Shown: piece after piece, positions 1 to 53,117 of the stretch
Layout of the letters: each line of letters starts with the position of its first letter
Numbering within the stretch: the first letter of the stretch is position 1
NCBI GenBank assembly: GCA_030550775.1
Contig: JAUQOS010000001.1
Location: forward strand, 19,259 to 83,258
Source of the DNA: Armatimonadota bacterium
GTDB taxonomy: Bacteria; Armatimonadota; Fimbriimonadia; Fimbriimonadales; GBS-DC
Length of the DNA stretch: 64,000 nt
Reading direction: 5' to 3'
The notes under the pieces: generated by a model
The model's input: only the letters and a program-made list of their open reading frames with translations
Database searches by the model: none
What the model was told of the DNA's origin: nothing
Translations under genes and position numbers: made by a program

Positions 1-518
1 CTGAGCGCGCTTTGGATTTCGGTGTCAAACGCGCGCCATGTTTCTGGACGCCCAAACCGCAGCACGGTTTGCGAGCGGTCAGGGTCGTACAGGTCTAAAA
101 TCTGTGCCTGCGTGATGGCATCGGTGCTCCCGAGGCTGGTGGGATGGTCGGGGTTGCCTTCCAATTTGATGGGGCGTCCTTCGTACACACGCGCCAGCAC
201 GCCGATGCCATAGCCGTTGCTGAGCACGGCGGTGGCGTAGTAGTTGGAGACGCCCACGATGCGATCTTCGGGCGTTTTGGGGCGCGAGATGATGGGTCCT
301 TGCGGCTTGTAGCCGCACGCCGACAGCCCCGCCAGCGCCATCGACGCGCCCATGAGCTTGAGGAACTGCCGGCGGCTCACAAAGTCGCCCAGCGGCGCCG
401 CCTGACGCGGAAATTCCTGCTTGAGGATTTCCTCAAACTCAGGGTTGCCCTCTAGCTCATTCAGGCTGCGCCAAAACTGCTCGCCGATGCCTTGCTGCTG
501 TTCGCGTTTGGTTTCCAT
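1..518 (-). CDS. actB: Alternative complex III ActB-like molybdopterin/4Fe-4S subunit, N-terminal part (gene continues past the left edge)
   Basis: Absent from the ORF track because the frame stays open to the window edge. My translation of the minus strand from ATG 518-516 gives METKREQQQGIGEQFWRSLNELEGNPEFEEILKQEFPRQAAPLGDFVSRRQFLKLMGASMALAGLSACGYKPQ. This contains the twin-arginine Tat motif SRRQFLK. The 9-nt gap after the pentahaem gene stop is the SD GGAGGAGCG. The N-terminal pattern matches what I recall for Tat-exported MoCo/4Fe-4S ActB proteins. Confidence 0.7.
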   Translation of the reverse strand, partial: METKREQQQGIGEQFWRSLNELEGNPEFEEILKQEFPRQAAPLGDFVSRRQFLKLMGASMALAGLSACGYKPQGPIISRPKTPEDRIVGVSNYYATAVLSNGYGIGVLARVYEGRPIKLEGNPDHPTSLGSTDAITQAQILDLYDPDRSQTVLRFGRPETWRAFDTEIQSAL

Positions 519-527
519 CGCTCCTCC

Positions 528-1262
528 TCACCGATGGCAAATCGAGCAGTCGCTCAGTTGCTCCTTATGAATGTTGTAGTGCTTTACCAACAGCTTGCCC
601 AGCTCCAGCTGGTTGCGCGGGATGTTGTTGGGGTCATAGGGGATGCCGTATTTATCCAACATCGCCTTCATCTCCTCTTGGGTGCGTGGCGTCTGGTAGT
701 ACATGTTGAACACTTCCTCTTTCGGGCGGATATACTTCTCAGGGTTGCGATGGCACTCTAGACACCACTGCATCGAAAAAGCTTGCGACTTGTGGGTCAG
801 GTGCATTTTCTCAATGCCCTGATGGCAATTGGCACAGCTGATGCCCTTGTTTACATGCGCGCTGTGGTCAAAGTAAACGAACTCAGGCAGGTTGTTGACC
901 TTGTACCACACCAGCGGTTTGTCGTTGTTATAGCTATCGCGCACAGGCTCCAGCAAGGGGCTATTCGTCCAGATTTGGGAGTGGCAGGTCATACACACTT
1001 GAGTGGAAGGTACACCTGCGTGCGCTGATTGAGTTACAGACCAATGGCAATAGCGACAGTCAATGCCTAGTTCCTCATAGTGGTGCTTATGGCTGAAGGG
1101 CACAGGCTGGTCGGGGGGTTCGCCGACCTTTGTCCACCACGCCGAGCGGGTAATTGCCGAGCCGCCTAACGCTAGCCCCACAATCGCAAGCAATCCGCCA
1201 ACCACTAAGGAACGCGCTATCGTGTTATGATGCCGCTTAAAGACCTGCGCCATAGTGTTCAC
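528..1262 (-). CDS. actA: Pentahaem cytochrome c, ActA-like subunit of alternative complex III
   Basis: 244 aa with an N-terminal TM helix (SLVVGGLLAIVGLALGG) and five CxxCH motifs (CRYCH, CMTCH, CANCH, CLECH, CSICH). It lies directly upstream of the ActB-like gene, giving the actA-actB order. Confidence 0.75.
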   Translation of the reverse strand: MNTMAQVFKRHHNTIARSLVVGGLLAIVGLALGGSAITRSAWWTKVGEPPDQPVPFSHKHHYEELGIDCRYCHWSVTQSAHAGVPSTQVCMTCHSQIWTNSPLLEPVRDSYNNDKPLVWYKVNNLPEFVYFDHSAHVNKGISCANCHQGIEKMHLTHKSQAFSMQWCLECHRNPEKYIRPKEEVFNMYYQTPRTQEEMKAMLDKYGIPYDPNNIPRNQLELGKLLVKHYNIHKEQLSDCSICHR

Positions 1263-1554
1263 CTCGCCTGCTTAGCGTGGGGGTTCGCGACAGGCACAAC
1301 AATTCCTGCCTGTGCTCCGCTTGTGATGAAAAGCACAATCTTAGCCACGCTAAGCGTTTTTTCCATAAAAAATCACTGGGAGGGCCTTGCGTAGACGAAC
1401 AGCGTTGTTGCCTGCCTCGCCTACGCAAAACCTCCACTACGGGATATATTACCTCATGTCGGCGCGGATTGTCAAGAGGCTTAGGGGCAGTTTGTGAAGC
1501 GTTTCACGGAGTTGAAGGGCAAGCGTTCCATATCAGTTGCGAACTTATGAGATA

Positions 1555-1632
1555 CCTCGCCCTCGGCTCGAGATGACGCGCACACCTTCGCACAAGAAAA
1601 GCTCTGTCATTCCAACCAGAGCAAGGAACCTC
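1555..1632. repeat. Family-B short palindromic intergenic repeat (degenerate copy)
   Basis: Arms cctcgccctcggctcgagatgac ... gtcattccaaccagagcaaggaacctc. These resemble the arms at 32631-32712, 41731-41813 with 42119-42140, 50300-50398 and 57843-57870. Confidence 0.5.
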
Positions 1633-1676
1633 ACCCATTTGCTCTCGATACGAAGTCACTTGGGTTTAACGCATTC

Positions 1677-1881
1677 CTGACAAGGATCCATCGTTTGGGT
1701 TCCCGGCGCGCTTTGCGTGCGGATTTTCCATTTCTGCCCCCTCCGCAAGGTTCCCCTCGTGAAAGGGGAACTGAACTCTGAACGGTTTCCCCTACCGTGT
1801 AGAGAGAACCTCAAGGAGGGGGTTTTGGGAAAATCAGGCAACTGCTTTGGCAGTTGAGGCTGCCTCCTATACCTTTGCCAG
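1677..1881. mobile_element. Family-A MITE-like multi-hairpin element, copy 1 (degenerate ends)
   Basis: Ends are ctgacaagga ... cctttgccag. The interior tctgccccctccgcaaGGTTCCCCtcgtgaaaGGGGAAC...ggtttcccctac..gtagagagaacc...ggcagttgaggc aligns by eye along its length with 56741-56941, and partly with 41813-42118. Confidence 0.6.
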
Positions 1882-1962
1882 TTGACATATTCCTCCAAAA
1901 GCATAAGCGTATAAAGTCATCCGCAAAACAATAGGCATCTCATACTGTAACCCAGACCACCC

Positions 1963-1992
1963 TTGACAACCACTCCCATTTTGGAGTATAAT
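1963..1992 (+). promoter_or_regulatory. Sigma-70-type promoter of the Fur-family/ATPase operon
   Basis: TTGACA (1963-1968), an 18-nt spacer, then TATAAT (1987-1992). The palindrome GAAAActaTTTTC (2001-2013) lies between the -10 box and SD GGAGGGAG, followed by ATG 2029. Confidence 0.55.
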
Positions 1993-2028
1993 TCGCCACA
2001 GAAAACTATTTTCCGCCGGAGGGAGCGC

Positions 2029-2466
2029 ATGAACCGACTAACAGAAGGACTTAAAGCCGCAGGGCTGCGCCTCACACCGCAGCGCGTCGCCATCTGCAAA
2101 ATCTTGGAGGAAAGCAAAGACCATCCCACCGCCCTCATGATTTACCATCAACTGCTGCCGCAGTTTCCAACACTGAGCCTCGCTACTGTGTATAAGACCC
2201 TCAATGTGCTAAAGTCAATGGGGTTGGTACACGCGCTTGGTGACGCAGGCGACGGCGCGGAGCACTTTGATGCTGACCTAACCCCTCACATCAATCTCGT
2301 TTGCACCAAGTGCCACCGCGTGGTGGATTTCGATGAAGCACGCATCCAAGAGATTCAACGCGCGGTGGAGCAGCGCTCAGGCTATGTCATCCAGGGGGCG
2401 CGGATTGTGTACTACGGGCTATGCCCCCAGTGTCGTGCTAACGGTTCGCTGAAGGAGAGCGCGTGA
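2029..2466 (+). CDS. Fur-family metal-responsive transcriptional regulator (Fur/PerR/Zur type not resolved)
   Basis: Winged-helix region LTPQRVAICKILEESKDHPTALMIYHQL...LATVYKTLNVL and two CxxC pairs (CTKCHRV, CPQC). The ORF-track start at 1963 (TTG) lies inside the -35 box. ATG 2029 follows SD GGAGGGAG. The stop overlaps the ATPase start (GTGATG). Confidence 0.85.
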   Translation: MNRLTEGLKAAGLRLTPQRVAICKILEESKDHPTALMIYHQLLPQFPTLSLATVYKTLNVLKSMGLVHALGDAGDGAEHFDADLTPHINLVCTKCHRVVDFDEARIQEIQRAVEQRSGYVIQGARIVYYGLCPQCRANGSLKESA

Positions 2467-4769
2467 TGGGCATCGTGCGGAGCATTCAGAGGCGATTGGC
2501 GGAAGCCGATTCGTGCGCCGACGAGATGGCGAAAGTCGCTCGCGCCTACGCGGGCATTTGGCGCATCCGTTATGAGTATCGCAACAACCTCGTGGAGGTA
2601 GAGTACGATCCGCGCCTGATGAGCACGGAGGAGGCACAACGCGCCGCAGAGCCTCTGCTTCGCGAGTTAGGGATTCGTATTCCTACCTGTCACTTGCGCG
2701 ACCCTAGCGAGGGCTTGTGCGCCGCCTGCCCTAGCATCCAGCAGCGTGGCAAACGCTGGCAACTGGACGGCGTGGTCTACCGCGCCAGCTTCGACGGCAA
2801 CGCGCTGGTGCTGGAGCAAGAACACGCCCCCACCGAGCCGACCCATCGGCTGCTGCGCCGCGTGAAAGCGATTGAGCGCCCCACCCCACTGTGGCAAAGT
2901 CGCGCCTTCTGGGAGCCTGTGTTGTCCGTGCTGACTCTGTTGATGCTCATCGTGGGCGGGCTGCTGCGCTGGCAAGAGCAAATCGGGCTGGCAAACCTCG
3001 CCTATGCTGTCGCCTACCTAGCGGGGGGCTACTTCGGCGTGATTGACGGCTATCAGACCCTGCGCGAACGACGCCTTGATGTGAACTTCCTGATGATAAC
3101 AGCCGCCATCGGCGCGGCGATTGTCGGCGAAGCCCCCGAAGGAGCGACGCTGCTGTTTCTGTTCTCACTTTCCAACACCCTACAAAACTACGCATTGGCG
3201 CGTAGCCGTCGCGCTGTGCGCGCCCTGATGGCGCTCCAACCCGATACCGCCCTGCGCATCACCCCCGCAGGCACCGAAACCGTGCCCGTAGAAGAACTCC
3301 AAGTGGGCGACCGCGTGCTTACCCGCCCTGGCGACCGCATCCCCACCGATGGCGTCGTGCTAAGCGGTGAGTCGCATGTGGATCAATCTCCCATCACGGG
3401 TGAAAGCATCCCCGTGCATAAAGCCCCCGGCGATGTGGTGTATGCAGGCACCATCAATGGCAACGGCACCTTGGAGATCGAAGTGCGCGCGCCCGCCACT
3501 GAAACCCTGCTGCACCGCATCTTGCAGTTGGTCGAGCAAGCCCAAGAGCAGAAGGCACGCACCCAACGCTGGCTGGAGCAGTTTGAACAGCGCTATGCTT
3601 TAGCGGTTATCGGGGGCGCGGCGTTGGTGGCAATTGGGCTGCCTGCGCTTGGCTGGAGCTTCAGCGACGCCTTCTACCGCGCGATGACCCTGTTGGTAGT
3701 TGCCTCGCCCTGTGCGCTGGTCATCAGCACCCCTGCAACCTTGCTTTCTGCCATCGCCAACGGGGCACGACGCGGCATTCTGTTCAAGGGCGGCGAACCG
3801 CTGGAACGATTGGCAGCCGTGCGGGCAATCGCCATCGACAAAACAGGCACTCTCACCGAAGGCAAACTGGTGTTCACGGAAATGGTGACGTTACCAAACG
3901 CCTCAGAAGCCGAAGCGTGGCAGGTGATTGCCGATCTGGAATCGCGTTCCGAGCACCCGTTGGCGCAGGCGTTGTTGCAAGCGGCTGAAGCCCACGGCTA
4001 TCAGCCCCGCCCTGTGGCACGCGTGGAAGCCGTGCCCGGCAAAGGCATCACCGCCACACTCCACGATGGCACTGAAGCGCGTATCGGCAACCCGCGCCTG
4101 TTTGAGGATATTGGGGTGCCTGAGGAAGTTCAGCAAATCGTGCAACGCCTTCGCGAGGCAGGCAACACCGCGATGATTGTGTGGGCAGACGGGCGATTTT
4201 TGGCGGTAGCTGCGGCAGCTGATAAGGTGCGCGCCGAAGCTGCCGAGGCAATCACGCAATTGCACCAGCTGGGCATCCCCTGCGTGGCGATGCTCACAGG
4301 CGATGCGGAGCCGATCGCCCGCGCCGTTGCTCAGCAAACGGGCATTGACCGCGTCTACGCAGACCTGCTGCCCCACGAAAAGCTGGATGCCTTGCGCCAG
4401 CTAAACGCTGAATGGGGTGCCACCGCGATGGTGGGCGATGGTGTGAACGACGCCCCTGCCCTTGCCGCCGCCGAAGTGGGCATCGCGATGGGTGCAGGTA
4501 CCGATGTTGCCCTAGAAACCGCTGACGTCGCCCTCGTGGGCAACGACCTCACAAACCTCCCCTACGCCGTTGCCCTCAGCCGACGCGCGATGCAAGTGCT
4601 CAAGCAAAATCTGATTTTCGCCACAGCCGTTATCGCGGTACTGGTGGTGCTCACTTTCGCCGCCAACTTGCGCCTGCCGCTGGGCGTGGTGGGGCACGAA
4701 GGTAGCACGCTGATCGTGGTGGCAAACGGGCTGCGGTTGCTCTGGTTCCGCCCCCGCCAGCAACGGTAA
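2463..4769 (+). CDS. Heavy-metal P-type ATPase, P1B-4-like (Co/Zn/Fe2+ efflux type)
   Basis: 768 aa with TGES, DKTGTLT and GDGVNDAPAL motifs. It has the TM motif SPC (VASPCALV) and a C-terminal HEGST; SPC plus HEGxT is the P1B-4 signature as I recall it. The N-terminal ~150 aa has Cys motifs (CHLRDPSEGLCAAC) but no GMxCxxC. Confidence 0.85.
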   Translation: MMGIVRSIQRRLAEADSCADEMAKVARAYAGIWRIRYEYRNNLVEVEYDPRLMSTEEAQRAAEPLLRELGIRIPTCHLRDPSEGLCAACPSIQQRGKRWQLDGVVYRASFDGNALVLEQEHAPTEPTHRLLRRVKAIERPTPLWQSRAFWEPVLSVLTLLMLIVGGLLRWQEQIGLANLAYAVAYLAGGYFGVIDGYQTLRERRLDVNFLMITAAIGAAIVGEAPEGATLLFLFSLSNTLQNYALARSRRAVRALMALQPDTALRITPAGTETVPVEELQVGDRVLTRPGDRIPTDGVVLSGESHVDQSPITGESIPVHKAPGDVVYAGTINGNGTLEIEVRAPATETLLHRILQLVEQAQEQKARTQRWLEQFEQRYALAVIGGAALVAIGLPALGWSFSDAFYRAMTLLVVASPCALVISTPATLLSAIANGARRGILFKGGEPLERLAAVRAIAIDKTGTLTEGKLVFTEMVTLPNASEAEAWQVIADLESRSEHPLAQALLQAAEAHGYQPRPVARVEAVPGKGITATLHDGTEARIGNPRLFEDIGVPEEVQQIVQRLREAGNTAMIVWADGRFLAVAAAADKVRAEAAEAITQLHQLGIPCVAMLTGDAEPIARAVAQQTGIDRVYADLLPHEKLDALRQLNAEWGATAMVGDGVNDAPALAAAEVGIAMGAGTDVALETADVALVGNDLTNLPYAVALSRRAMQVLKQNLIFATAVIAVLVVLTFAANLRLPLGVVGHEGSTLIVVANGLRLLWFRPRQQR

Positions 4770-4837
4770 AATCAACTCACAGCGCAACATGGCTTTTTAG
4801 CGCAGCCATTCTAGCTGCGGGGCGTGTGTACGCCTGA

Positions 4838-5266
4838 TCAGCGTGCCAACACACGCGCTGCGCCCAAAAACCCTATCACCAGCAGCCCCAAAATGCCCAC
4901 CATCACGATCCACCCCAACCAGCGGCTCCACCGCGTCTCTGCGCGACGCTCCAACGGCACTGCCTCATGGCGCATGCGCGTATCTTTGCCAAACAGAAAC
5001 ACAAAGTAAAATCGTGTCCACAAAAACGGGATCACGCCGCGCACATCCAGTAGGTGGCGGCGATGATACTGGTACAATGACTGTTTGAGTCGCTGATACT
5101 GCTCAGGCGTAAGCGACTGCAACAAATCAGGCGGTAGCGCGCGCAGCAAGTGCAAAATATATACATCTTGTGGCTGCTCGGCGGGCTGCTCCCCCTCAAA
5201 CGCCTCTCGGACAATCCACAAAGGCGGTTTCTCCTCTGGCTCAGGTTGACGCGCTGGATACGCCAT
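4838..5266 (-). CDS. Hypothetical protein with C-terminal TM helix
   Basis: ORF 4838-5317. I prefer ATG 5266 (MAYPARQ...) because GATAAT (complement of 5274-5279) lies 7 nt upstream. C-terminal TM helix WLGWIVMVGILGLLVIGFLGA. No recognisable domain. Confidence 0.5.
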   Translation of the reverse strand: MAYPARQPEPEEKPPLWIVREAFEGEQPAEQPQDVYILHLLRALPPDLLQSLTPEQYQRLKQSLYQYHRRHLLDVRGVIPFLWTRFYFVFLFGKDTRMRHEAVPLERRAETRWSRWLGWIVMVGILGLLVIGFLGAARVLAR

Positions 5267-5309
5267 ACCGCCAATTATCGGCACAGACTGGCTCAGGTAT
5301 AATCCCTGC

Positions 5310-5735
5310 GTGCGCACGGCGGTAGAGACGGTGGAGCGTTGCTTGCAACTGATGGAGCGCTACCAGCTCCAAACGCTGGAGATTAGCGTGGGCGAGACGC
5401 ATCTGAGGATTGAACGCGCTGAGCTTGCGTCTGCGCCACAGGTCGCGCTTGTCGCACCGCCTGCGGAATCCACACCCTCCGAAGCCCCTGATTGGATTCC
5501 GATTGAGGCGCCGATGACAGGCATGTTCTATCGCGGACCCTCACCCAACGAGCCGCCTTATGTTGAAGAAGGCGACCTCATTTACGAAGGGCAAACTATC
5601 GGGCTGATTGAAGCGATGAAGGTGTTCAACGAAATTCCTTCGCCTGCTACCGGCGTGGTGCGACGGATCGTCGCGCAGAACGCTACTTTAGTGCAGCAAG
5701 GCGAGGTGCTGATGCTGCTGGAGCCACCCGAATGA
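5310..5735 (+). CDS. accB: Biotin carboxyl carrier protein-like (biotinyl domain)
   Basis: 141 aa with the biotinylation motif IEAMKVFNEI (EAMK) and a Pro/Ala linker. GGTATAAT (5296-5303) lies 6 nt upstream of GTG 5310. The stop overlaps the hom start (ATGA at 5732-5735). Confidence 0.75.
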   Translation: MRTAVETVERCLQLMERYQLQTLEISVGETHLRIERAELASAPQVALVAPPAESTPSEAPDWIPIEAPMTGMFYRGPSPNEPPYVEEGDLIYEGQTIGLIEAMKVFNEIPSPATGVVRRIVAQNATLVQQGEVLMLLEPPE

Positions 5736-7012
5736 GCAAAACCCTTCGCTTGGCAATACTGGGCGCGGGCACGGTGGGCGGCGGCGTGCTGACCCTGCTT
5801 CGCGAAAACGCCGACCTCCTGTACGCCCAAACAGGCAAGCAGTTTGTGGTGCGCCATGTAGTTGTGCGCGATCTTAGCAAGCCCCGCGCGGTTTCCATTG
5901 CCCCGCAGGTGCTGACCACCGACGCGCAACGCGCCATTAGCGACCCCCGCGTGGACGTGGTGCTGGAGCTAATGGGCGGCTTGGAACCCGCGCGCACGCT
6001 TATCCGTGAGGCATTGCTGCACGGCAAGCATGTGATTACCGCCAATAAGCTGGTAATAGCTGTGGCAGGCGACGAACTCATCCGCTTGGCGCAAAAGCAG
6101 CGCGTGCGCCTCCTTTACGAGGCGAGTGTGGCAGGCAGCTTGCCGATTCTCACCGCGTTGCAGGGCGCGTTGGGGGGCAACCGCATTACGCGCATCGTGG
6201 GCATCGTCAACAGCACTACCAACTTCATTCTGCGTGAGATGGAGCACGCCGTTGAGGCAGGCGAACCCGCCGAAGACGCCTACGCCAATGCCCTACGCAA
6301 AGCGCAAGAACTCGGCTACGCCGAAGCCGACCCCACCAGCGATGTGGAGGGCTACGACGCCCAGTACAAAACCGCAATCTTAGCGCGGCTGGCGTTCCTT
6401 CAGTATGTGCCTGTGGAAAGCGTCTACCGCGAGGGCATCACCCATCTCAGCGGGCGCGATCTTCTCTGGGCAACCCGCCTGCAGATGGGGCTGAAACTTT
6501 TGAGCATTACCGAACGACTACCCGACGGTAGGCTGTGTGCTCGTGTGCATCCCACGCTGCTCCCGCGCGAGCATCCCCTGTATGCCGTGCGTGGGGCGTT
6601 TAGCGGTATCTGGCTGCAGGGCAACGGCTTCCAAGAGATGCTCTTTCACGGTTTTGGAGCAGGTGCTCGCGCCACCGCCAGCGCGGTCGTCGGCGATCTA
6701 ATAGAAGTCGCCCGCCATCCACGCCCACTCAGGTTCGAGGACCCCTCTCTCCGCGCGGGCGAAACCGCCCCGCTCGAAACGCTGTCTATGCGCTACTACC
6801 TGCGCCTCACCGCGTCCGACGAGACAGCGTTGCGCCTCGTGCGTGAAACACTACACGCGCTTGGCGCCGAGCTACACCCTGCTGAATCCCTCGCGAATGG
6901 TATCGAACAAGTGGCACTTACCCCCATGCTCAACGAGGGCGAGTTCCAAGCTCGCCTTACCGCTTTGCGCCAGCAAACAGGCGTGCAGATTCAAGTCATT
7001 CGAGTGCTGTAG
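5732..7012 (+). CDS. hom: Homoserine dehydrogenase
   Basis: 426 aa with an NAD-binding N-terminus LAILGAGTVGGGV, ITANK, a catalytic region (YEASVAGSLPI, TNFIL, AEADPTSDVEGYDA) and a C-terminal ACT-like domain. Confidence 0.9.
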   Translation: MSKTLRLAILGAGTVGGGVLTLLRENADLLYAQTGKQFVVRHVVVRDLSKPRAVSIAPQVLTTDAQRAISDPRVDVVLELMGGLEPARTLIREALLHGKHVITANKLVIAVAGDELIRLAQKQRVRLLYEASVAGSLPILTALQGALGGNRITRIVGIVNSTTNFILREMEHAVEAGEPAEDAYANALRKAQELGYAEADPTSDVEGYDAQYKTAILARLAFLQYVPVESVYREGITHLSGRDLLWATRLQMGLKLLSITERLPDGRLCARVHPTLLPREHPLYAVRGAFSGIWLQGNGFQEMLFHGFGAGARATASAVVGDLIEVARHPRPLRFEDPSLRAGETAPLETLSMRYYLRLTASDETALRLVRETLHALGAELHPAESLANGIEQVALTPMLNEGEFQARLTALRQQTGVQIQVIRVL

Positions 7013-7017
7013 CCACG

Positions 7018-7706
7018 ATGGTAGGTATAATTCGCTTCGTGCAGGGCAACTACTCTTCTCTGCTCGTGCGGTACCGTTCACTTCGTGCAGAGGGGCATGC
7101 ACCCCGCGAGGCGTGGCAGCAAATCAAGCAAGCATTCCTTGCAGAAAGTACCGCGACAAACCCTGAACAAGCCTGGAAAAATGCCAGTGGGCGGGCATTT
7201 GAGCAAGTCAGTGCAGAGGAATTCGCCAAACAGCTCGAAGAACTCAAAATCTATCAGTGCAAGCCTGGAGTGATATTAAGGAACAGCTTGTCAAACGCAT
7301 CCTTAGCGAAACCTTGTGGTTGCGAGGCGAACTGCAGGAACCTTACATTGCCGAATCACGAGTGGATTTTGTGGCTTTCGAGCAAAGTGAAGGGCGCCCT
7401 ATTCGCGTGATTGCAGTTTATAGTTGCAAGGCTTCGCTTCGTGAGCGGTTCCAGCAAGATCTGTACTGGGCGGAAAAGTTTCGCTCCCGAGGCATTCGCT
7501 TTTGCTTTATTACTCTCGACAACGATGGGGTATTACTTCAAGCCGCTACACAAGGCACGCTGAGCAGCAAGCAAGCCAAAATGGCGCTCGCCCTCTACGA
7601 CAAGGTTTACTTGCTTACGGAAGAACCTATCCGGTATCATCAGCGCATTTTACGCCCCATCGACTCGCTGGGGGAGGACCTGCACCGATGGCAGCAAGCA
7701 GATTAG
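7018..7706 (+). pseudogene. Type II restriction endonuclease, PD-(D/E)xK (S-x-K variant), split by a 1-nt frameshift
   Basis: Two overlapping ORFs, 7018-7410 (frame 1) and 7257-7706 (frame 3). Frame 1 reads sensibly up to ...GRAFEQVSAEEFAKQLEELKI and then turns Cys-rich and implausible. Frame 3 is open from 7203 and reads sensibly from ...AWSDIKEQLVKRILSE. The second part carries VDFVAF...AVYSCKASLRER...AEKF (D, S-C-K, RER, E). The gene ends 19 nt inside the methylase gene. Confidence 0.6.
7025..7041 (+). repeat. Left copy of the 17-bp direct repeat bracketing the R-M cassette
   Basis: GTATAATTCGCTTCGTG here against GTATAATACGCTTCGTG at 9016-9032 (16/17 identical, 1991 bp apart). It contains a -10 box, a 7-nt spacer and GTG. 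Confidence 0.8.
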
Positions 7707-9010
7707 CCGTTTCCCAAGCGCACTTTGAAGGGCTGACACCCAACCCGAGTTGGGCGTTTCAGGAACTCACCCAGAAACAAACAAACTACGCCACTCACGG
7801 CTACCATCGTTACCCCGCCAAGTTCATCCCCCAACTGGCAGCCCGCCTCATTGAAGAATATTCCTCACCTAACGACTGGGTCGTAGATCCTTTTATGGGT
7901 TCGGGCACCACACTCGTGGAAGCGAAACTATTAGGACGCCCCAGTGTAGGCACCGACATCAATCCCGTTGCTCACCTTATCGCACGAGCGAAAACCCAAG
8001 CCATCGAACCAGAATACCTTGCGCAAACCATTGAACAAGTGCTAAGCTCGCTTTACAACACGGCTCAGCCAAGCCTCTTCGAAGAGCTACTGGAAAAAAC
8101 TGCCATAAGCCCCCCAGAATGGCACGAACGCCTCCGCTACTGGTTCCCCGAGAGCGCCCTCCAGCAACTGGCACAAATCCAACATGCAATCAACCGCATA
8201 CCCGACGATTCCGTACGCACATTCCTCGCATGCGCACTTTCGCATATCTTAAAAACCGTCTCATTCTGGCACGACCGAAGCGTGGAACCGATACGCAAAC
8301 TTAACAAAACCATTCCTGACGCACGTGTAGCGTTCCAGAAACACCTCAAGCGAATGGCACGGGGTAATCGCGAGTTTTGGGAGTTGCTGACCCTACACTC
8401 AAGGCTGGATGTGCCTACCCTTCCCCACTGCGCCGATGCGCGTACGCTCCCACTTGTCGACGAATCGGCTACCCTCGTCGTAACCTCGCCACCGTATGTC
8501 ACCAGCTACGAGTATGCGGATCTCCATCAGCTAAGTGCCCTTTGGTTTGGCTGGACAAGCAACCTGCAAGAGTTTCGGCAAAGATTCATCGGGCGCACCA
8601 ACAACAACCACGCGAGAACCCTCGAGTTAGGGTCAACCCTCGCGGAACGAATCGTGGCTCAACTTGCTGAAATTTGCCCACGAAAAGCACGTGAAGTCGC
8701 CCTCTATTTCAGCGAAATGGCTACCTGCTTCGGCGAAATGCGACGTATTCTGAAACCCGGCGGCTATGTCTGTATCGTAATCGGCAACACGAACCTGTGC
8801 GGCGTGGAAGTGCAAAACGCGCAGGTTTTCACGGAACAGCTCGATGCACTAGGCTTTTCCATTGAGCGCGTCATTCTGCGCGAAATTCCGTCCAAAATCC
8901 TTCCGCGTACACGCGACAAAACAACAGGCAAGTTCGCCAAAACCGAAGAAGCGAACTACATCGCTTACCCAACAGAATATATTCTCGTGGCTCGGCGTGC
9001 TTGCTCCTAA
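7688..9010 (+). CDS. DNA amino-methyltransferase (N4-cytosine/N6-adenine family, SPPY type, alpha motif order)
   Basis: SAM motif DPFMGSGTT (7886-7912) precedes catalytic motif TSPPY (SPPY at 8486-8497). ATG 7688 follows SD GGGGAGGA. The ORF-track extension back to 7502 overlaps the endonuclease and I discount it. Confidence 0.85.
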   Translation: MAASRLAVSQAHFEGLTPNPSWAFQELTQKQTNYATHGYHRYPAKFIPQLAARLIEEYSSPNDWVVDPFMGSGTTLVEAKLLGRPSVGTDINPVAHLIARAKTQAIEPEYLAQTIEQVLSSLYNTAQPSLFEELLEKTAISPPEWHERLRYWFPESALQQLAQIQHAINRIPDDSVRTFLACALSHILKTVSFWHDRSVEPIRKLNKTIPDARVAFQKHLKRMARGNREFWELLTLHSRLDVPTLPHCADARTLPLVDESATLVVTSPPYVTSYEYADLHQLSALWFGWTSNLQEFRQRFIGRTNNNHARTLELGSTLAERIVAQLAEICPRKAREVALYFSEMATCFGEMRRILKPGGYVCIVIGNTNLCGVEVQNAQVFTEQLDALGFSIERVILREIPSKILPRTRDKTTGKFAKTEEANYIAYPTEYILVARRACS

Positions 9011-9015
9011 ATCGA

Positions 9016-9032
9016 GTATAATACGCTTCGTG
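9016..9032 (+). repeat. Right copy of the 17-bp direct repeat
   Basis: GTATAATACGCTTCGTG. Its terminal GTG (9030) is the most plausible start of the Dop/PafA-family gene. Confidence 0.8.
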
Positions 9033-10571
9033 AACCGCCTGGTGGGGATTGAAACCGAGTATGGTCTATATGTGGAGGGGCGTGGGGTCGCCGACCAAGT
9101 GATGGAGGCGGTGAACCTGCTGCGCAATTGCCCGTTTCCCGCGGTTAGGGGCTGCTGGGATTACCGCTTGGAAGACCCGCGACGCGACATGCGTGGCTTC
9201 CGCGTGGAGCAACTCGCCGTAGACCCTGCCGATGCTCAAATTGAGCGCGAGCACCCCGTCACCCTCTCCGAGCGCGAAGTGCGTAATGACCATGTGCTTA
9301 CCAACGGCGCACGCCTCTACAACGACCACGCTCACCCCGAATACGCCACCCCCGAGTGTCGCCGCCTAATGGACCTTATCGCTCACGACAAAGCTGGCGA
9401 ACGCATCGTGCTGGCTTGCGCCCAAGCCTACGCTCAAAAAGCAGGTACCACCGTCAAACTTTACAAAAACAACACCGATTACCACGGCAGCAGCTACGGC
9501 ACCCACGAAAGCTACCTCCTGACCCGCGAGATACCTTTTGACACCTTAGCCACCACGATGATGCCGTTTTTGACCACACGGCAAATTTTCGCGGGTGCAG
9601 GCAAAGTGGGCGTGGAGGTCAACACCACCCCGCGCGTGCCGTACCAGATTAGTCAACGCGCCGACTTTTACATGGACACGATGAATGTAGAAACGCTCTA
9701 CCGCCGTCCGATTTTCAATACCCGCGACGAACCCCACGCCAAAATGCGCTACTATCGTCGGCTGCATGTCATCTGCGGCGACGCCAACATGAGTGAGTAT
9801 GCCACCGCGCTCAAAGTAGGCACTACCGCACTCGTGCTGGACTTGCTGGAAGAGGGCTGGGCAATCGACTTTTTCATTATTGAACCTGTGCGTGCTGCGC
9901 AAAGCATCTCGCGCGACCCCGACGGCAAGTGGCTCGTGGAAACCGACGCGGGCGTGATGAGCGCGATTGATATCCAACGCCATTATCTTCAGGCAGCGCA
10001 CACTCGGTTTGCAGGTCGCGACGCCGAAACCGACTGGCTGCTGCGCGAATGGGAAACTGTGCTCGACCTGTTGGAAACCGAACCCGAGCTGCTCAGCAAC
10101 CGCTTGGATTGGATCGCCAAACGCCAGCTGCTTACCCTGTTTGCCGAAACCGAGGGCATCGCACTGGATGACCCCGTAATGATTGCCCTCGACTTGGCGT
10201 ATCATGATATAGACCCTGCCGAGGGGCTATACTATGCCTTAGTCGAGCAAGGGCGTATGCAAACTTTGGTCAGCCCCGAGGCAGTGGAACTGGCAATGCG
10301 CCAGCCGCCAGCAGATACACGGGCGTACATTCGAGGTTTGGTGGTTGAACGCTACCCATCACAAGTGGAAAGCCTCAACTGGGAGCGTATCATCCTGCGC
10401 AACGAGGAGCAAACCGTGCGGCTGGACTTGAGCCAGCTGCTGGGCAATCTGCGCGATTTGAACCGCCGTCTTACGGCGGCACAAAGCATCACCGAGTTCG
10501 TGCAACTATTGCAATCGCCCCACAGGGCGAGCGAAACCAACAAGGAGGCACGCAATGATACTGCAGGCTGA
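9030..10571 (+). CDS. dop: Pup-ligase/deamidase family protein (Dop-like)
   Basis: N-terminus (M)NRLVGIETEYG. Also carries NGARLYNDHAHPEYATPEC; DHAHPEY looks more Dop-like than PafA-like, though this is from memory. The ORF-track start at 8862 overlaps the methylase. GTG 9030 lies 7 nt after TATAAT (9017-9022). Confidence 0.8.
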   Translation: MNRLVGIETEYGLYVEGRGVADQVMEAVNLLRNCPFPAVRGCWDYRLEDPRRDMRGFRVEQLAVDPADAQIEREHPVTLSEREVRNDHVLTNGARLYNDHAHPEYATPECRRLMDLIAHDKAGERIVLACAQAYAQKAGTTVKLYKNNTDYHGSSYGTHESYLLTREIPFDTLATTMMPFLTTRQIFAGAGKVGVEVNTTPRVPYQISQRADFYMDTMNVETLYRRPIFNTRDEPHAKMRYYRRLHVICGDANMSEYATALKVGTTALVLDLLEEGWAIDFFIIEPVRAAQSISRDPDGKWLVETDAGVMSAIDIQRHYLQAAHTRFAGRDAETDWLLREWETVLDLLETEPELLSNRLDWIAKRQLLTLFAETEGIALDDPVMIALDLAYHDIDPAEGLYYALVEQGRMQTLVSPEAVELAMRQPPADTRAYIRGLVVERYPSQVESLNWERIILRNEEQTVRLDLSQLLGNLRDLNRRLTAAQSITEFVQLLQSPHRASETNKEARNDTAG

Positions 10572-10743
10572 AGAGCGCGTCCGACGCTCAATACCAACTG
10601 AGCCGCTGACCCGCCCTGGCGGCGACGGCGACGGTCCAAGCCGTCCCGATGTGAAACGACCCGACACCAACGAGTTGCTGCGGCGTATGCGTCGCGTTGA
10701 TCCTGAGCAGGCGCGTCGCTACCGCCAACGCAGCGGCGAATAG
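10555..10743 (+). CDS. UBact/Pup-like small protein modifier
   Basis: 62 aa, predicted disordered, with a Gly/Asp stretch (PGGDGDGP). The C-terminus is ...VDPEQARRYRQRSGE (terminal Gly-Glu). SD AAGGAGG lies 6 nt upstream. It sits between the Dop-like gene and prcB. Confidence 0.75.
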   Translation: MILQAEERVRRSIPTEPLTRPGGDGDGPSRPDVKRPDTNELLRRMRRVDPEQARRYRQRSGE

Positions 10744-10981: not shown

Positions 10982-11779
10982 ATGCGGACACATATAGGCG
11001 ACTTTTTTGAATTATTGCAACGCTATCAGGCGCAAACGGGCGTACGCATCCCCATGTTGCAGCCCTTAGAAACGCCCGCTCACACCCCGAACAGCGCGCT
11101 GGAAGTGCACGGCACAACAGTTATCGCCCTGAAGTTCAAGGGCGGCGTGCTGAATGTGGGCGACCGACGCGCCACCGCCGCGAACGCCGTGATGTACGAC
11201 CGCGCCGACAAGATTGTTCCGTTAGACGACTACACGCTGATTGCCATCGCTGGGGCATACGGGCGTGCGATGGAGGTCGTGCGGTACCTGCGCCACGCCT
11301 TCAAGTACTACGCCCGCAGTCAGCTGCAACCAATGAGCCTCGATGGCAAACTGCAAGAAGTTAGCCGTGTCCTCTCGGCAAACCTGCCGAATGCTTTGGG
11401 CGGTATCGGGCTGTTCGTGCCCATCCTCAGCGTGTACGATCCCGACCAAGACCGCGGACGCATCTTCTTCTTCGATATCAGTGGGGCGCGGTTTGAAACC
11501 CCGGAATACGGCGCCGCTGGCTCGGGCGCGGAACGCATCCGTGGTGTGTTTGATTACATTACCAAAACCAAAGGCGCCTTCAGTGAGCGACCGCTGGAAG
11601 AAGTGCTGCGCGAGGCGATCCTGCTGCTCGACATCGCCGCCGACTTAGACGCTGCCACTGGCGGTATAGATAAAGTATTGCCTACCGCCCGCTACGCTAC
11701 CCGCGAGGGCGTGTTCGAAGTGCCCGAAGAGACTATCCGCGCGATCGTGCAATCCATCCGCACAGGAGGCAACGCCTGA
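10982..11779 (+). CDS. prcB: Proteasome subunit beta
   Basis: Propeptide followed by HG|TTVIALKFKGGVLNVGDRRAT (N-terminal Thr nucleophile motif). The stop overlaps the prcA start (ATGA-type junction at 11779). Confidence 0.9.
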   Translation: MRTHIGDFFELLQRYQAQTGVRIPMLQPLETPAHTPNSALEVHGTTVIALKFKGGVLNVGDRRATAANAVMYDRADKIVPLDDYTLIAIAGAYGRAMEVVRYLRHAFKYYARSQLQPMSLDGKLQEVSRVLSANLPNALGGIGLFVPILSVYDPDQDRGRIFFFDISGARFETPEYGAAGSGAERIRGVFDYITKTKGAFSERPLEEVLREAILLLDIAADLDAATGGIDKVLPTARYATREGVFEVPEETIRAIVQSIRTGGNA

Positions 11780-12531
11780 TGCTAACCCCTTACGATTTTC
11801 AGGAGAACCTTCAGCAGCGCGCCCAATATATTCGCAACCGTTTGCGCGCAGGCAGCCCCGTCATCGGCATCAGCTACGACAACGGCATTATGCTATTGTC
11901 GTTCAAGCGACGCGGGCGCAAAGTGTTCGAAATCTACGACCGCTTGATGTTCTCTGCCATTGGCAACCAAGCCGATGTGGAGAATCTGCGCTTGGCAGCG
12001 ATTGACTTCTCGCATCAAGAGGGCTTCGTGCGCAGCCCCGACGATGTGACGATCCAGCGCGTGGTGGGCTTTGCGCTTTCGCCCGCGCTCAAAAAAGCGT
12101 TCGGCGACCCGCTGACAGCGCCGTTTGTGGTGCGCGCGCTGTTTGCAGAGCTGCACGATACCCCCGAACACGACTTGTTCTACACCCTCAACTACGATGG
12201 CGAGTTCCTGCCCTACGAGCGCTTTGCCGTGATTGGCGGCACGGCAAACGCCGAGGAGCAAGCCACACGCTATTTGGAGGCGAACCTCAGTGGCGTGCCT
12301 ACTTTTGAGAGCAGCGTGCCGGTGGCGCTGACCGCGTGGGGCATCGCCTATGAGGCGGCGCAACTGGAAGAGGCAGACGGCGTTTCGGAAGAGGCAGGGC
12401 GACGCCGCCTGCGTGAACTGCTTGCCGAGGGGCAGCTGGAAGTAGGCATCTTAGAGCGGCACACCTTGCGCGAGAACCGCTTTCGCCTCGTGCCCCACGA
12501 GCAGATAGAGCCGTTCCTGCAACGGCTGTAG
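11779..12531 (+). CDS. prcA: Proteasome subunit alpha
   Basis: 250 aa, immediately after prcB. Shows the typical alpha-subunit N-terminus and core (VIGISYDNGIMLLS, FSAIGNQADVENLR). Confidence 0.85.
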   Translation: MLTPYDFQENLQQRAQYIRNRLRAGSPVIGISYDNGIMLLSFKRRGRKVFEIYDRLMFSAIGNQADVENLRLAAIDFSHQEGFVRSPDDVTIQRVVGFALSPALKKAFGDPLTAPFVVRALFAELHDTPEHDLFYTLNYDGEFLPYERFAVIGGTANAEEQATRYLEANLSGVPTFESSVPVALTAWGIAYEAAQLEEADGVSEEAGRRRLRELLAEGQLEVGILERHTLRENRFRLVPHEQIEPFLQRL

Positions 12532-12533
12532 CG

Positions 12534-14036
12534 CTACTGGCGTGCGGTCGTCAGCGAAAGCCCAAACAGCACCGCACTCGGGTTGCGTCGCCAGAACACG
12601 AACGGCTCAATACAGCGGTCGCGCCAGCCCACCAGCAGCTGCACATCGTACAGTTCGCGGCCGTCGAGGTCAAACTTCAGCAATGCGCCCACACGTGCGT
12701 TGCCTTGTTGGTATTCTACACGAAAACTGGCTTCGCGCCGGGCGCGTATCTGCTCCGACAGGAAGGGGCTGGTGTGGCGCGTGGAGGTTTGCGCATAGCC
12801 CGCCATTAGGGTTAGTTGCTCGCGAGGTTGCCACACTATCTCCAACTGGGGGCGTAGCCACTGGTAAGTATCGGCGATGCCTTGATAGCGCGTCAGGCTA
12901 CTCCACAGGCGCAGCTGGAGCTGCACGCTTTGGTTTGTCCACAAAGGCTGAAGCCATTCGCCTTCCAAGCTCAGGCGTTCGCGTGTGGGGGTACGCTGCC
13001 CATCTATCCGCTCGCTAAGGCTGCCATAGCGTAGGCTTACCTCGCCCGTGCCCGTTCGCGCCCGCGTGGGCACGATTAGCCCCAGTTCGCGTCGCGAGAC
13101 GCGTAGGCGCTCGCGTGGGGCAAATAGCGGGCGTATATCCGACGAATACTCCACGCGCACGGTGGGGGCGGGGCGTGTCTGGGTGCGCTCAGGACGTGCG
13201 CGCAGGTTGTACAGTGGCGACTGTTCAAAGCGTAGGCGTAAGTCGGGGTCGCCAAGGCTGGGCTCGCCTTCGCTGAGAGCCGCACCTCCTATCAAGCGCA
13301 GTTCAGGCACCGCGTGCAGGTAGCTTACTATCCCACCTTGCATCACCAAGCGATCGCCGATGGGCAACTCCACCTGCATGCGCAGCCCCCACCCTGTCTC
13401 GCGTGCATATACGGGCGATGGCATACTCACAATCTCGGCGGTCTCGCGCAGGCGCAGTGTGAACTGAGGCAAGCTCAGCACTTGCCTGCCGTAAAGCACG
13501 AGGCGGGCGTTGCTGACTGTAAGGCGCGCCCCTTGACGCAATCGTATTCGCCCTGCCTGCACGCGAATGGGCGGGCGAAACGGATCGCAGGTGGAAACCG
13601 TCGCTTCGCGGGCAGAAAAATCACCGAGGTCTCCTTCCAGCACAGCGGCGCGAACATAAACCCCCAACACCTCGGCTTGCACACCTTCAAACCGCCCCCG
13701 CTGCAATGCGTAGAAATAATCAATGCGCTCGCCTTGCAACACACCTTCAGGGGCGAAGAAACGGAACGGTGCGTTCGCACGCACGCGCTGCTGTTGCGCG
13801 TCTACAGCGAACTGTTCGCCCTCAAGTGTGCGCCCCTGGTATTCCATCACGACGGCGCCCGAGAGGTTGAGCAGCAACGTGCCCTCGTTAGTGCGGATAA
13901 CCTCGTAGGTAAGGGCGCGGATGGTAAGCGCCTCTTCGGATTGGGGAGCGCCGACGGTGAGTAGAAACGCCGCCCCGCAACCGATCGCGAGGCGGCGCAA
14001 TTGGGTGGTTATCTGGCGCGTGGATGGAAATTGCAT
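12534..14036 (-). CDS. LptD/OstA-like outer-membrane protein (short, 500 aa)
   Basis: Signal/anchor LAIGCGAAFLLTVGAP, an OstA-like N-terminal beta-jellyroll pattern, and the motif ATVSTCDPFRPPIRVQAGRIRL...ARLVLYGRQVLSLPQF, which resembles the LptD T-T-C-D...P-W signature. The C-terminal half has alternating beta-strand character. GGGTATAAT (complement of 14048-14056) lies 11 nt upstream of the ATG. Confidence 0.5.
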   Translation of the reverse strand: MQFPSTRQITTQLRRLAIGCGAAFLLTVGAPQSEEALTIRALTYEVIRTNEGTLLLNLSGAVVMEYQGRTLEGEQFAVDAQQQRVRANAPFRFFAPEGVLQGERIDYFYALQRGRFEGVQAEVLGVYVRAAVLEGDLGDFSAREATVSTCDPFRPPIRVQAGRIRLRQGARLTVSNARLVLYGRQVLSLPQFTLRLRETAEIVSMPSPVYARETGWGLRMQVELPIGDRLVMQGGIVSYLHAVPELRLIGGAALSEGEPSLGDPDLRLRFEQSPLYNLRARPERTQTRPAPTVRVEYSSDIRPLFAPRERLRVSRRELGLIVPTRARTGTGEVSLRYGSLSERIDGQRTPTRERLSLEGEWLQPLWTNQSVQLQLRLWSSLTRYQGIADTYQWLRPQLEIVWQPREQLTLMAGYAQTSTRHTSPFLSEQIRARREASFRVEYQQGNARVGALLKFDLDGRELYDVQLLVGWRDRCIEPFVFWRRNPSAVLFGLSLTTARQ

Positions 14037-14058
14037 CCGCCGCGCCGATTATACCCGT

Positions 14059-50418: not shown

Positions 50419-51423
50419 CTACAAAATCGGAAACTGCTCCAAAAAGCGCAGGTCGTTTTCCAGAAACAGGCGCAGGTCGTCTACGCCGTACTGCAGCATG
50501 GGGATGCGCTCGATGCCCAAGCCGAAGGCGAAGCCGCTGTAGCGTTCGGTGTCAACGCCGTACCGTTCTAAGATGGCAGGATGAATCAGCCCTGCGCCGC
50601 CCAGCTCCAGCCAACCGCCCTTCCACGAAATTGCGAAATCCACCCCTGGCTCTACAAAGGGGAAGTAGTCGGGGCGGAAACGCACGCGCACATCCTCGCC
50701 GAACATCATTTGCGCGAACTGGGTCAGCGTGCCTTTGAGGTGCGCCATGCTCACGCCCTCATCCACCATAAAGGCGTCCACTTGGTGGAAGGTGTGGGAG
50801 TGGGTGGCGTCCACATTTTCGTAGCGGTAGCACCGCCCGATGATGGCGATTCGCAACGGCAGCTGGCGTTCGCCCCGCTGCAGCTGTTCGAAGATGCGCC
50901 CCTGAATGGAGGTAGTTTGGGTGCGCAGCAGGTAGCCCGGCGCGATATGAAACGAGTTTTGTTCGTCCATCGCGGGGTGGTCTTCGGGGTAGTTGAGCGC
51001 GCCGAAGTTATAGCGGAACTCTTCGAGGTCATAGCCGTCTACGAACTCAAAGCCCAGCCCGATTAGAGCAGCTTTGACGCGACGCATCGTGAGTGTAAGC
51101 GGGTGCAGCCGAGCGGGGCGCAGGGGCATGCCGGGCAGCGTCACATCAAGCCGTTCGGCTTCGATGCGTCGCGCAAGTTCCAGCTGTTCCAGTTCGGCGC
51201 GGCGGGCGGCAAAGCGTTGCTCCAGCTGCTCGCGGGCGGCGTTGACCTGCTGCCCGAAGGCAGGTCGCTCTTCGAGTGGCAGGGTACCTACTTGGCGCAG
51301 CAGCTGGCTGATAGCTCCTTTTTTGCCCAAATAGCGCACCTCCACCTCTTGGAGTTCGGCGGTGGAGGTGGCTTGGGCGATCGCGTGTTCCGCTTCCGCT
51401 AAGAGTTGATGAATCGTTTGCAC
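50419..51423 (-). CDS. pheS: Phenylalanine--tRNA ligase subunit alpha
   Basis: 334 aa with class II motifs (...IIGRCYRYE..., ...GFAFGLGIERIPMLQYGVDDLRLF). No pheT follows. Confidence 0.95.
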   Translation of the reverse strand: MQTIHQLLAEAEHAIAQATSTAELQEVEVRYLGKKGAISQLLRQVGTLPLEERPAFGQQVNAAREQLEQRFAARRAELEQLELARRIEAERLDVTLPGMPLRPARLHPLTLTMRRVKAALIGLGFEFVDGYDLEEFRYNFGALNYPEDHPAMDEQNSFHIAPGYLLRTQTTSIQGRIFEQLQRGERQLPLRIAIIGRCYRYENVDATHSHTFHQVDAFMVDEGVSMAHLKGTLTQFAQMMFGEDVRVRFRPDYFPFVEPGVDFAISWKGGWLELGGAGLIHPAILERYGVDTERYSGFAFGLGIERIPMLQYGVDDLRLFLENDLRFLEQFPIL

Positions 51424-51425
51424 GG

Positions 51426-51776
51426 CTACGCGCTGGGGCGTACCGCGTCCACGAGCATCTTGAAGGCTTCGGGGTCGCGGATTGCCATTTCAGATAGTTG
51501 CTTACGGTTGATTTGGATGCCGCGCTCGCTTAGGGCGTGGATGAACTCGTGATAGCGAATGCCGTGCAAGCGGCAAGCAGCGCTGATTCGGGTAATCCAC
51601 AGGCGTCGAAAATCGCGTTTGCGCTGCCGACGGTCACGAAAAGCGTAATGCAGCGATTTCATCACCTGTTCGTTCGCTTTGCGGAACAGGCGGCTTTTCG
51701 CGCCGTAGTAGCCCTCTGCGCGCTTGAGTATCTTCTTATGGCGACGCCGCGTTACGGTACCACCTTTGACGCGCAT
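51426..51776 (-). CDS. rplT: 50S ribosomal protein L20
   Basis: [32 protein letters not shown]... Confidence 0.95.
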
Positions 51777-51788
51777 CTTTTTGCCTCC

Positions 51789-51986
51789 TTAGCGTCCTGC
51801 CAGCAAGCGGTTCACACGCCGATACTCGCCCTTGAACAGTTCGTCCTCGTGGTCGAGCCGGCGTTTACGGGCGGGCGACTTACTCAGAAACAGGTGGCTG
51901 TTGCCCGCTTTCTTGTGCATGAGTTTGCCCGTCGCTGTCCGTTTGAACCGCTTGGCGGCGGTTTTGCTCGTTTTCATCTTGGGCAT
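51789..51986 (-). CDS. rpmI: 50S ribosomal protein L35
   Basis: MPKMKTSKTAAKRFKRTATGKLMHKKAGNSH... with SD GAAGGAGG upstream. Confidence 0.95.
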   Translation of the reverse strand: MPKMKTSKTAAKRFKRTATGKLMHKKAGNSHLFLSKSPARKRRLDHEDELFKGEYRRVNRLLAGR

Positions 51987-52545: not shown

Positions 52546-52571
52546 GGCTTCCTCACCCTCGCTTTGATGTG

Positions 52572-53084: not shown

Positions 53085-53117
53085 CACTGCCTCCGCGCCG
53101 TATTATACCATGCTTGA

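Follow-up and report, generated by a model that had tools for sequence, protein, structure and literature searches.

This analysis concerns a 64-kb stretch of DNA from a bacterium of the Armatimonadota (order Fimbriimonadales), called here, in its full length, the window. In it, a cassette of two restriction-modification (R-M) genes, a broken endonuclease gene and a DNA methyltransferase gene (the methylase), lies between hom and a dop-like gene, and both edges of the cassette carry a 17-bp sequence of nearly the same letters. From this repeat, an original prediction made on the same DNA concluded that the cassette had been inserted into the promoter and start of dop with duplication of its target, so that its excision would restore a hom-dop junction. 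Our comparison with relatives indicates that the locus is likely an ordinary R-M unit acquired at a rearrangement junction. The features of the locus are as follows:

5296 to 5312, plus strand: module of the BCCP-hom operon, GGTATAAT-N6-GTG; GTG 5310 is the start of the Biotin_lipoyl open reading frame (ORF)
5732 to 7012, plus strand: hom, homoserine dehydrogenase (PF00742 and PF03447); closes the conserved BCCP-hom block and borders the synteny break on the left
7025 to 7041, plus strand: left 17-mer, GTATAATTCGCTTCGTG; -10 TATAAT at 7026-7031, 7-nt spacer tcgcttc, GTG 7039
7039 to 7410, plus strand: endonuclease 5' fragment, in frame to about 7247 and then out of frame; stop codon at 7408-7410
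7247 to 7248, plus strand: endonuclease frameshift site, a 10-bp deletion against the intact ortholog of the sister species L142
7257 to 7706, plus strand: endonuclease 3' fragment with the RE_BsaWI catalytic domain (PF18643)
7688 to 9010, plus strand: N4/N6 DNA methyltransferase of 440 aa (PF01555); reading frame intact in the window strain
9010 to 9032, plus strand: native dop promoter, AATCGAG and then the right 17-mer, GTATAATACGCTTCGTG (9016-9032); -10 at 9017-9022, spacer acgcttc, GTG 9030
9030 to 10571, plus strand: dop/PafA2-type gene of the Pup_ligase family (PF03136, E = 5e-157); opens the UBact-proteasome operon
10555 to 10743, plus strand: UBact (Pfam UBact, E = 1.3e-23)
10982 to 11779, plus strand: proteasome beta, part of the right-hand conserved block
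11779 to 12531, plus strand: proteasome alpha, part of the right-hand conserved block

The two 17-mers lie where the original prediction had placed them, 1,991 bp apart, and are 16/17 identical, the sole difference being T7032 versus A9023. Each is built as GTATAAT, 7 nt, and GTG, and the 1,974 bp between the copies (7042-9015) hold just the endonuclease remnant and the methylase; all of this had been described correctly. Nothing else in the 64 kb matches the pattern when up to 3 mismatches are allowed. Their similarity ends sharply at both edges, with gatggtag versus taaatcga upstream and CAG versus AAC downstream, and the methylase stop codon TAA (9008-9010) directly abuts the native dop promoter. 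Candidate third and fourth copies at 7070-7090 and 7433-7443 were rejected as a coding coincidence: both encode Ser-Leu-Arg in the endonuclease and are weaker in L142. Rfam and tRNA scans of the window returned nothing. As for the genes to the right, the dop product falls below the NCBIfam equivalog cut-offs (470 versus 492 bits for Dop, 362 versus 551 bits for PafA), and the UBact ORF overlaps the 3' end of dop by 17 nt (10555-10571) and encodes a protein with the C-terminus ...RQRSGE.

Relatives were gathered by a scan for Dop in genome contigs (61 loci), a scan for hom in metagenomes (80 loci), and exact-protein look-ups of the closest Dop and methylase clusters. The Dop scan yielded metagenome-assembled genomes (MAGs) of Fimbriimonadales and Armatimonadota at 81-85% identity. 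The hom scan yielded one conspecific contig, L062, which matches the window without gaps over 17 kb at 99.3% identity, and other relatives at 59-80%; four more conspecific contigs (L144-146 and L154) came from the exact-protein look-ups. The sister species L142 is 95.5% identical in Dop, 97.4% in PrcB, 97.2% in PrcA, and 83.8% in the methylase, and the next outgroup after it, L148, has a Dop that is 87% identical. Starting at the hom stop codon, the order of elements in L142 is that of the window: the hom stop, GGTATAATctgcctcGTG, endonuclease, methylase, GAGTATAATacgccctGTG, and dop. Its left and right modules match at 13/17 positions and their spacers at 3/7. The methylase gene, whole or in fragments, is present on all 8 contigs whose Dop is at least 90% identical. 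Of additional interest is the divergence between window 7039-9010 and L142 58-2039: synonymous divergence (dS) is 0.66-0.81 in the R-M genes and 0.19-0.40 in dop, UBact, prcB, and prcA, and identity between the two species steps from ~82% to ~91% at both cassette edges. The higher dS of the R-M genes could reflect weaker codon bias, or else the cassette may have undergone allelic replacement.

A hom-dop junction without the cassette was found neither in 12 dop relatives (Dop 81-87% identical), nor in 8 hom relatives, nor through the exact-protein look-ups. The claim that excision would restore such a junction therefore finds no counterpart, since no cassette-free relative has hom adjoining dop; this is the outcome that the original prediction had itself named beforehand as speaking against it. 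Upstream of dop, the relatives have a dockerin-protein gene (L148, L004, and L013), reverse-strand genes (L008-L010), or a CRISPR-like array (L007, the JP3_11 MAG), and downstream of hom, they have convergent genes with no homolog anywhere in the window. A test for block replacement, in which the genes downstream of hom were compared with those upstream of dop in relatives, revealed no similarity. The BCCP-hom block is conserved in L063-L070, with nothing 3' of it in common with the window, and the order dop-UBact-proteasome is conserved in L001-L013, L142, and L148. In L010, the complete genome KatS3mg018, the genes 2-5 kb upstream of dop (3199-5994) map to window 50422-53099 on the minus strand, ~41 kb downstream of dop. 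By these comparisons, the proteasome locus appears to have been rearranged repeatedly in Fimbriimonadales, its upstream neighbor differing in almost every relative. Because no relative has hom next to dop, the cassette sits at a clade-specific junction of two blocks. The array of L007 abuts the dop promoter at about 160-280; there, a 35-nt unit, cattcacccccaagggtgggtgcccattgaaacaa, is repeated with spacer-like sequence between the copies, which resembles the terminal part of a CRISPR array.

The cassette also differs from its surroundings in composition. With a GC content of 53.1%, 7024-9010 falls below hom (62%) and the window as a whole (59.7%), and no other 2-kb stretch of the window is as low, the standard deviation over such stretches being 2.2 points; GC at third codon positions (GC3) is 54-57% in the cassette against 65-75% in neighboring genes. 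The windowed GC and codon-position check thus does set the cassette apart from its flanks. The contrast that had been read as a sign of foreign origin is real, but smaller than the 45-57% versus 68% given for it in the original prediction. A second low-GC stretch (~53%) lies at window 1-2500; within it are an ORF whose product resembles a multihaem cytochrome c (528-1262, minus strand) and, ahead of a P-type ATPase, a Fur-like regulator.

Homologous endonuclease-methylase pairs (methylase 63-71% identical) are widespread in Fimbriimonadales MAGs. We found such a pair, with a methylase 67-69% identical, in at least 5 other genomic contexts, among them beside NADH dehydrogenase genes in L147, behind an HD-domain operon in L149, behind an H+-pyrophosphatase gene in L150/151, and, in L152/153, with a Macro-domain gene on one side and a 2Fe-2S protein gene on the other. 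In every flanked context, the cassette lies 3-7 GC points under its surroundings. Its 5' signals vary among these other contexts, being an own TTGACA/TAAAAT promoter, translational coupling, a post-terminator position, or GGTATAAT-N6-GTG; in L149, there is no promoter, and the cassette is translationally coupled, 4 nt past the upstream stop codon. A search for flanking direct repeats at five of these other contexts gave none scoring 9 or more. Up to 8 kb upstream of dop, the 12 dop relatives have no hom, endonuclease, or close methylase homolog, although L009 and L010 carry methylase fragments of just 36-40% identity downstream of the proteasome operon; in the 8 hom relatives (hom 59-80% identical), neither dop nor R-M genes follow downstream. 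The low GC and GC3, the absence beside hom or dop in these 20 relatives, and the presence in at least 5 other contexts bear out the view that the unit is an acquired R-M cassette, and this distribution indicates that the pair is mobile. With respect to the L152 context, L001 has at about 4930-5120 (in reverse orientation) a TTGACA-N17-GGTATAAT promoter, divergent from the Macro-domain gene, that drives two tRNA genes, and at about the same intergenic position in L152 (4283-4341) lies the endonuclease GGTATAAT-N6-GTG. From this comparison, the second R-M copy also lies at a synteny break beside a resident-looking -10 box.

The 3' part of the endonuclease matches RE_BsaWI (PF18643) with E = 1.5e-9 and 38.3 bits, against a gathering cut-off of 26.2; the homologs in L142, L152, and L147 are likewise above the gathering score (35-42 bits), and AgeI is a marginal PDB match. 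Intact homologs are ~225 aa long, the model being matched by their C-terminal half only, and the 5' fragment of the window aligns to their residues 1-70. In L142, the endonuclease is an intact 225-aa protein, from which the window differs in the alignment by the 10-bp deletion at 7247/7248, so that the description of the gene as a remnant is confirmed. The frame structure is the same in L062, L144, L145, and L154, whose alignments are ungapped in the endonuclease, and the gene is thus broken in 5/5 assemblies checked (the window and four conspecific ones); the 149-aa C-terminal gene call is identical in L144-L146 and L154. Since the 3' part has a ratio of nonsynonymous to synonymous divergence (dN/dS) of 0.08 against L142, its inactivation came late on the branch of the window species.

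The methylase starts at ATG 7688 (not 7691), overlaps the 3' end of the endonuclease by 19 nt, matches PF01555 (N6_N4_Mtase, E = 5.9e-26), and was found by exact-protein look-up to be identical to protein P0001. Its translation has the FxGxG motif DPFMGSGTT on the N-terminal side and SPPY on the C-terminal side, and its PDB relatives are N4C and N6A methyltransferases, the resemblance being confined to the surroundings of the AdoMet-binding site. Decay has reached this gene as well. Its counterpart in L062 (11957-13279) differs from the window at 10 nucleotides, 6 of them protein-changing, and one of these turns W22 into a stop codon (G7752A), which is present in L154 too. The L154 counterpart (2658-3981, with fragments called at 2865-3275 and 3325-3981) has an additional 1-bp insertion (+1 frameshift) near 8250, the only gap in the L154 alignment. 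Three Logan contigs encode matching methylase fragments of 205/218 aa, and the frameshift fragments are P0250/P0252/P0256. The methylase is under relaxed constraint in this species, and its ongoing loss from some strains makes its recruitment to a host function improbable.

We turn to the 17-mers themselves, most of whose bases belong to a signal that is common in this lineage. Counting both strands, the window has 10 TATAAT sites, which lie shortly before ORF starts and of which 9 follow a G, and wCGC after the -10 recurs at several other promoters. In 305 kb of Fimbriimonadales DNA, 29 of 62 GTATAAT sites have GTG or ATG 6 or 7 nt farther on. Within the window, such GTATAAT-N6/7-start sites lie at 5296-5312, 7024-7041, 9015-9032, and 14036-14053 (minus strand), and three consecutive operons are headed in this way. 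Orthologs of the BCCP module stand upstream of BCCP in L063, L064, L066, L067, and L070. At dop, AATCGAGTATAAT (six more upstream bases, or a close variant), followed by N6/7 and GTGAACCG, is found in the 12 cassette-free relatives and in L142; the native upstream bases of dop (9010-9016, AATCGAG) accompany the right copy in the window, and in front of the left copy stands gatggtag, which is unrelated to them. The endonuclease module, GGTATAAT-N7-GTGCAGGGCAAC, is conserved in L142 including GTG 7039, which is also where the endonucleases of the window, L142, and L152 line up at their N-termini; the alternative ATG 7018 is not conserved. In L063 (~2290-2330) and L064 (~3530-3570), GGTATAAT overlaps the hom stop (GCGGTATAAttcc...), and 9 nt on lies the ATG of the downstream gene that it would drive in these relatives, a gene absent from the window.

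None of the -10 modules of dop, endonuclease, and BCCP has a Shine-Dalgarno sequence. Scans for a consensus -35/-10 promoter and for terminators found nothing at either junction, the promoter scan being blank at the 17-mers because they have no -35 element. The proposal that both 17-mers are leaderless promoter/start modules is therefore plausible, the dop module being kept in 13 relatives and the endonuclease module with its GTG in L142. As to whether the 17-mer is a common promoter word, an objection that the original prediction had raised against itself, the answer is divided: the full word has no further copy in the window, but the GTATAAT-N6/7-GTG module is generic in the lineage. We take this module to be the lineage's generic leaderless signal, with promoter activity and leaderless initiation as predicted properties, and the comparisons point to widespread leaderless expression in Fimbriimonadales; our literature search found nothing specific on such modules in Armatimonadota. 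Because G-TATAAT and wCGC recur at other promoters, most 17-mer bases are functionally constrained, and TTC in the spacer is the only part of the match that the consensus leaves unexplained. At the spacer end of dop, T precedes GTG in 12/13 relatives including L142, and CT in 8/13; the window alone ends in TC, and therefore the extra identity of its 17-mers is derived in this species and is not a decaying relic. Among pairs of the 62 GTATAAT sites, 1.3% share at least 6/7 of the following bases. The match is therefore unusual (~1 in 100), but it is not compelling for an after-the-fact observation.

From the observed anatomy, conservation, distribution, composition, and decay of this locus, we infer the following order of events. 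A compact type II R-M unit was probably acquired at a rearrangement junction, and the two 17-mers are best read as two separate standard leaderless signals and not as an insertion scar. The unit, a BsaWI-like CCGG-family endonuclease with an N4/N6 methyltransferase, would have been acquired horizontally before the split from L142, and it lies at the junction joining two otherwise unlinked conserved blocks, BCCP-hom and dop-UBact-prcB-prcA. The left module would drive the R-M genes, and the right module would be the ancestral dop promoter; with a -35-less G-TATAAT 6-7 nt before the start codon, transcription should start at or next to the GTG. The near-identity of the 17-mers would result from the consensus (GTATAAT, wCGC, and GTG) together with a small lineage-specific coincidence (TTC). 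Decay is now under way, with the endonuclease lost first (in all strains seen) and the methylase following strain by strain. The left -10 box could have come with the cassette or have been resident after hom, as in L063/L064; that it is a copy of the dop module is less likely than either origin, and on the whole improbable. The GGTATAAT-N6-GTG of L152 (GTGCAA) could be taken to prove that the cassette carries the left module along, but we downgraded this argument in view of the resident GGTATAAT of L001, the promoterless cassette of L149, and the GGTATAAT at the hom stop of L063/L064.

Several observations sit uneasily with this account. The 6/7 spacer identity exceeds ~99% of pairs of GTATAAT sites, for which chance is not a comfortable explanation. 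The left region of L142 reads CGAGTATAgGTATAAT, and dropping 6 bases from it gives CGAGTATAAT of the dop promoter. Over four comparisons, within and between the two species, mean left-right spacer identity is ~4/7 against a background of ~2/7, and a remote common origin of both modules could still underlie it. The promoter starts at ~7039 and ~9030 are themselves predictions from sequence. In addition, the nearest cassette-free relative has a Dop of only 87% identity, and therefore the state just before acquisition is unobserved.

These points lend some weight to the reading of the original prediction, that the R-M unit entered an ancestral hom-dop junction at the promoter/start of dop and that target duplication or Campbell-type recombination copied the module. 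Insertion of R-M units with target duplication is a documented class (PMC2853133), the direct repeat stands exactly at both cassette ends, the spacer match has the low empirical frequency given above, and CGAGTATA is present in the L142 left region and in the dop promoter alike. Moreover, the cassette has no constant promoter of its own elsewhere and therefore depends on local signals. We nevertheless consider this reading unlikely. Its empty site would read hom-TAG and then one GTATAAT-N7-GTGAACCGC, and no relative has hom beside dop at all. Staggered-cut duplication and Campbell-type integration both predict AATCGAG beside the left copy, but it is found beside the right one. The same insertion in L142 has copies just 13/17 identical, and the bases that raise the identity in the window's right copy are derived. 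The 17 bp are under the 30-bp criterion of the class, no single-copy target aligns to both flanks, and the GTG-CAR start is common to the L152 cassette in another context. A variant in which a promoterless R-M unit gained expression by duplicating the leaderless dop module on integration (promoter capture), with the 16/17 repeat and the CGAGTATA-gGTATAAT of L142 as its remains, appears to us similarly doubtful.

Two further explanations concern the history of the sequences after or before the acquisition. The modules may have been independent and partly homogenized after the L142 split, short-patch gene conversion from the R-M module having overwritten the end of the dop spacer. The right spacer of the window indeed differs from that of L142 at three adjacent positions (cct to ttc), all matching the left copy of the window, the TC of the left copy is common to the left copy of L142, and outgroups support CT as the ancestral end of the dop spacer. 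But recombination usually needs homology far longer than the 9 nt (CGCTTCGTG) plus 7 nt (GTATAAT) that are identical here, and with dS of 0.2-0.8 between the species, it is unremarkable for a 7-nt spacer free of constraint to have changed at two or three positions; gene conversion thus has only a slim chance of being the cause. Alternatively, the cassette could be ancestral to the locus in the order and lost elsewhere, with no acquisition at all, as the wide occurrence of homologous pairs in Fimbriimonadales MAGs might suggest. This we regard as very improbable, since the homologs lie in unrelated contexts, the pair is beside neither hom nor dop outside the clade of the window and L142, its GC and GC3 are atypical in every host, and the hom-dop linkage is itself clade-specific. 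The acquisition of an R-M unit between two separate leaderless signals is accordingly the account that we retain.

This account can be compared with known systems. BsaWI (W/CCGGW) and AgeI (A/CCGGT) are type IIP enzymes of the CCGG family (PMC4652773, PMC5389614). As in their R-M systems, the endonuclease gene with the RE_BsaWI match adjoins, overlaps, and is co-oriented with an amino-methyltransferase gene; unlike in those systems, the window endonuclease is a frameshifted pseudogene, its placement in the family being by profile. In the class of R-M insertion with long target duplication described by Furuta, Abe and Kobayashi (2010), the duplication exceeds 30 bp and aligns to a single-copy target in an insert-free genome, and the insert is under 20 kb with R and M homologs and no other mobile-element genes (PMC2853133). 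The cassette resembles this class in its R and M genes, compact size, atypical GC, direct repeat at both ends, and absence of a mobility gene. It differs in the 17-bp length of the repeat, in having no empty target, in that the repeat is a generic promoter word, and in the native flank of the right copy, which is on the wrong side. R-M units have also been linked to genome rearrangement or substitution at synteny breaks (PMC2853133), and the cassette stands exactly where blocks unlinked in relatives meet; in the available genomes, its link to the rearrangement is one of position.

Solitary (orphan) methyltransferases arise by decay of the endonuclease partner. The cassette is similar in that the endonuclease is frameshifted in all strains and the methylase is intact in the window strain, but differs in that the methylase itself is lost in some strains. 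Leaderless mRNAs from -10-only promoters have been described in Actinobacteria and Deinococcus-Thermus, and the modules predicted here are like them: TATAAT precedes the start codon by 6-7 nt, and both a -35 element and a Shine-Dalgarno sequence are missing. The overall picture matches well-described R-M biology: a minimally equipped or promoterless two-gene unit, intergenic moves, rearrangement points, and endonuclease-first decay. The locus would document the complete life cycle of an R-M unit in an uncultured lineage of Armatimonadota, from acquisition at a synteny break through fixation across speciation to loss of the endonuclease and then, strain by strain, of the methylase. The comparisons made here are also further evidence that Fimbriimonadales commonly have leaderless GTATAAT-N6/7-GTG modules. 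Where a -10 sits 6-7 nt before many start codons, any inserted gene will look bracketed by a short direct repeat, and to infer a target-site duplication from such a repeat calls for an empty site as well. Should the minority reading prove correct, this would be an R-M unit capturing a host promoter via its own insertion mechanism.

The window was also examined for the CCGG core. CCGG occurs 86 times against 266 expected, but GGCC, ACGT, CTAG, and GATC are likewise under-represented, and the deficit is hence uninformative on specificity. The observed/expected ratios of these 4-bp palindromes over the whole window are 0.05 for GGCC (18 versus 386), 0.14 for ACGT, 0.25 for CTAG, 0.32 for CCGG, and 0.33 for GATC. 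The avoidance is repeated in L008, L010, L066, L147, L148, and L152, where GGCC occurs 0-2 times per 11-21 kb, which suggests long exposure to many 4-cutter R-M systems.

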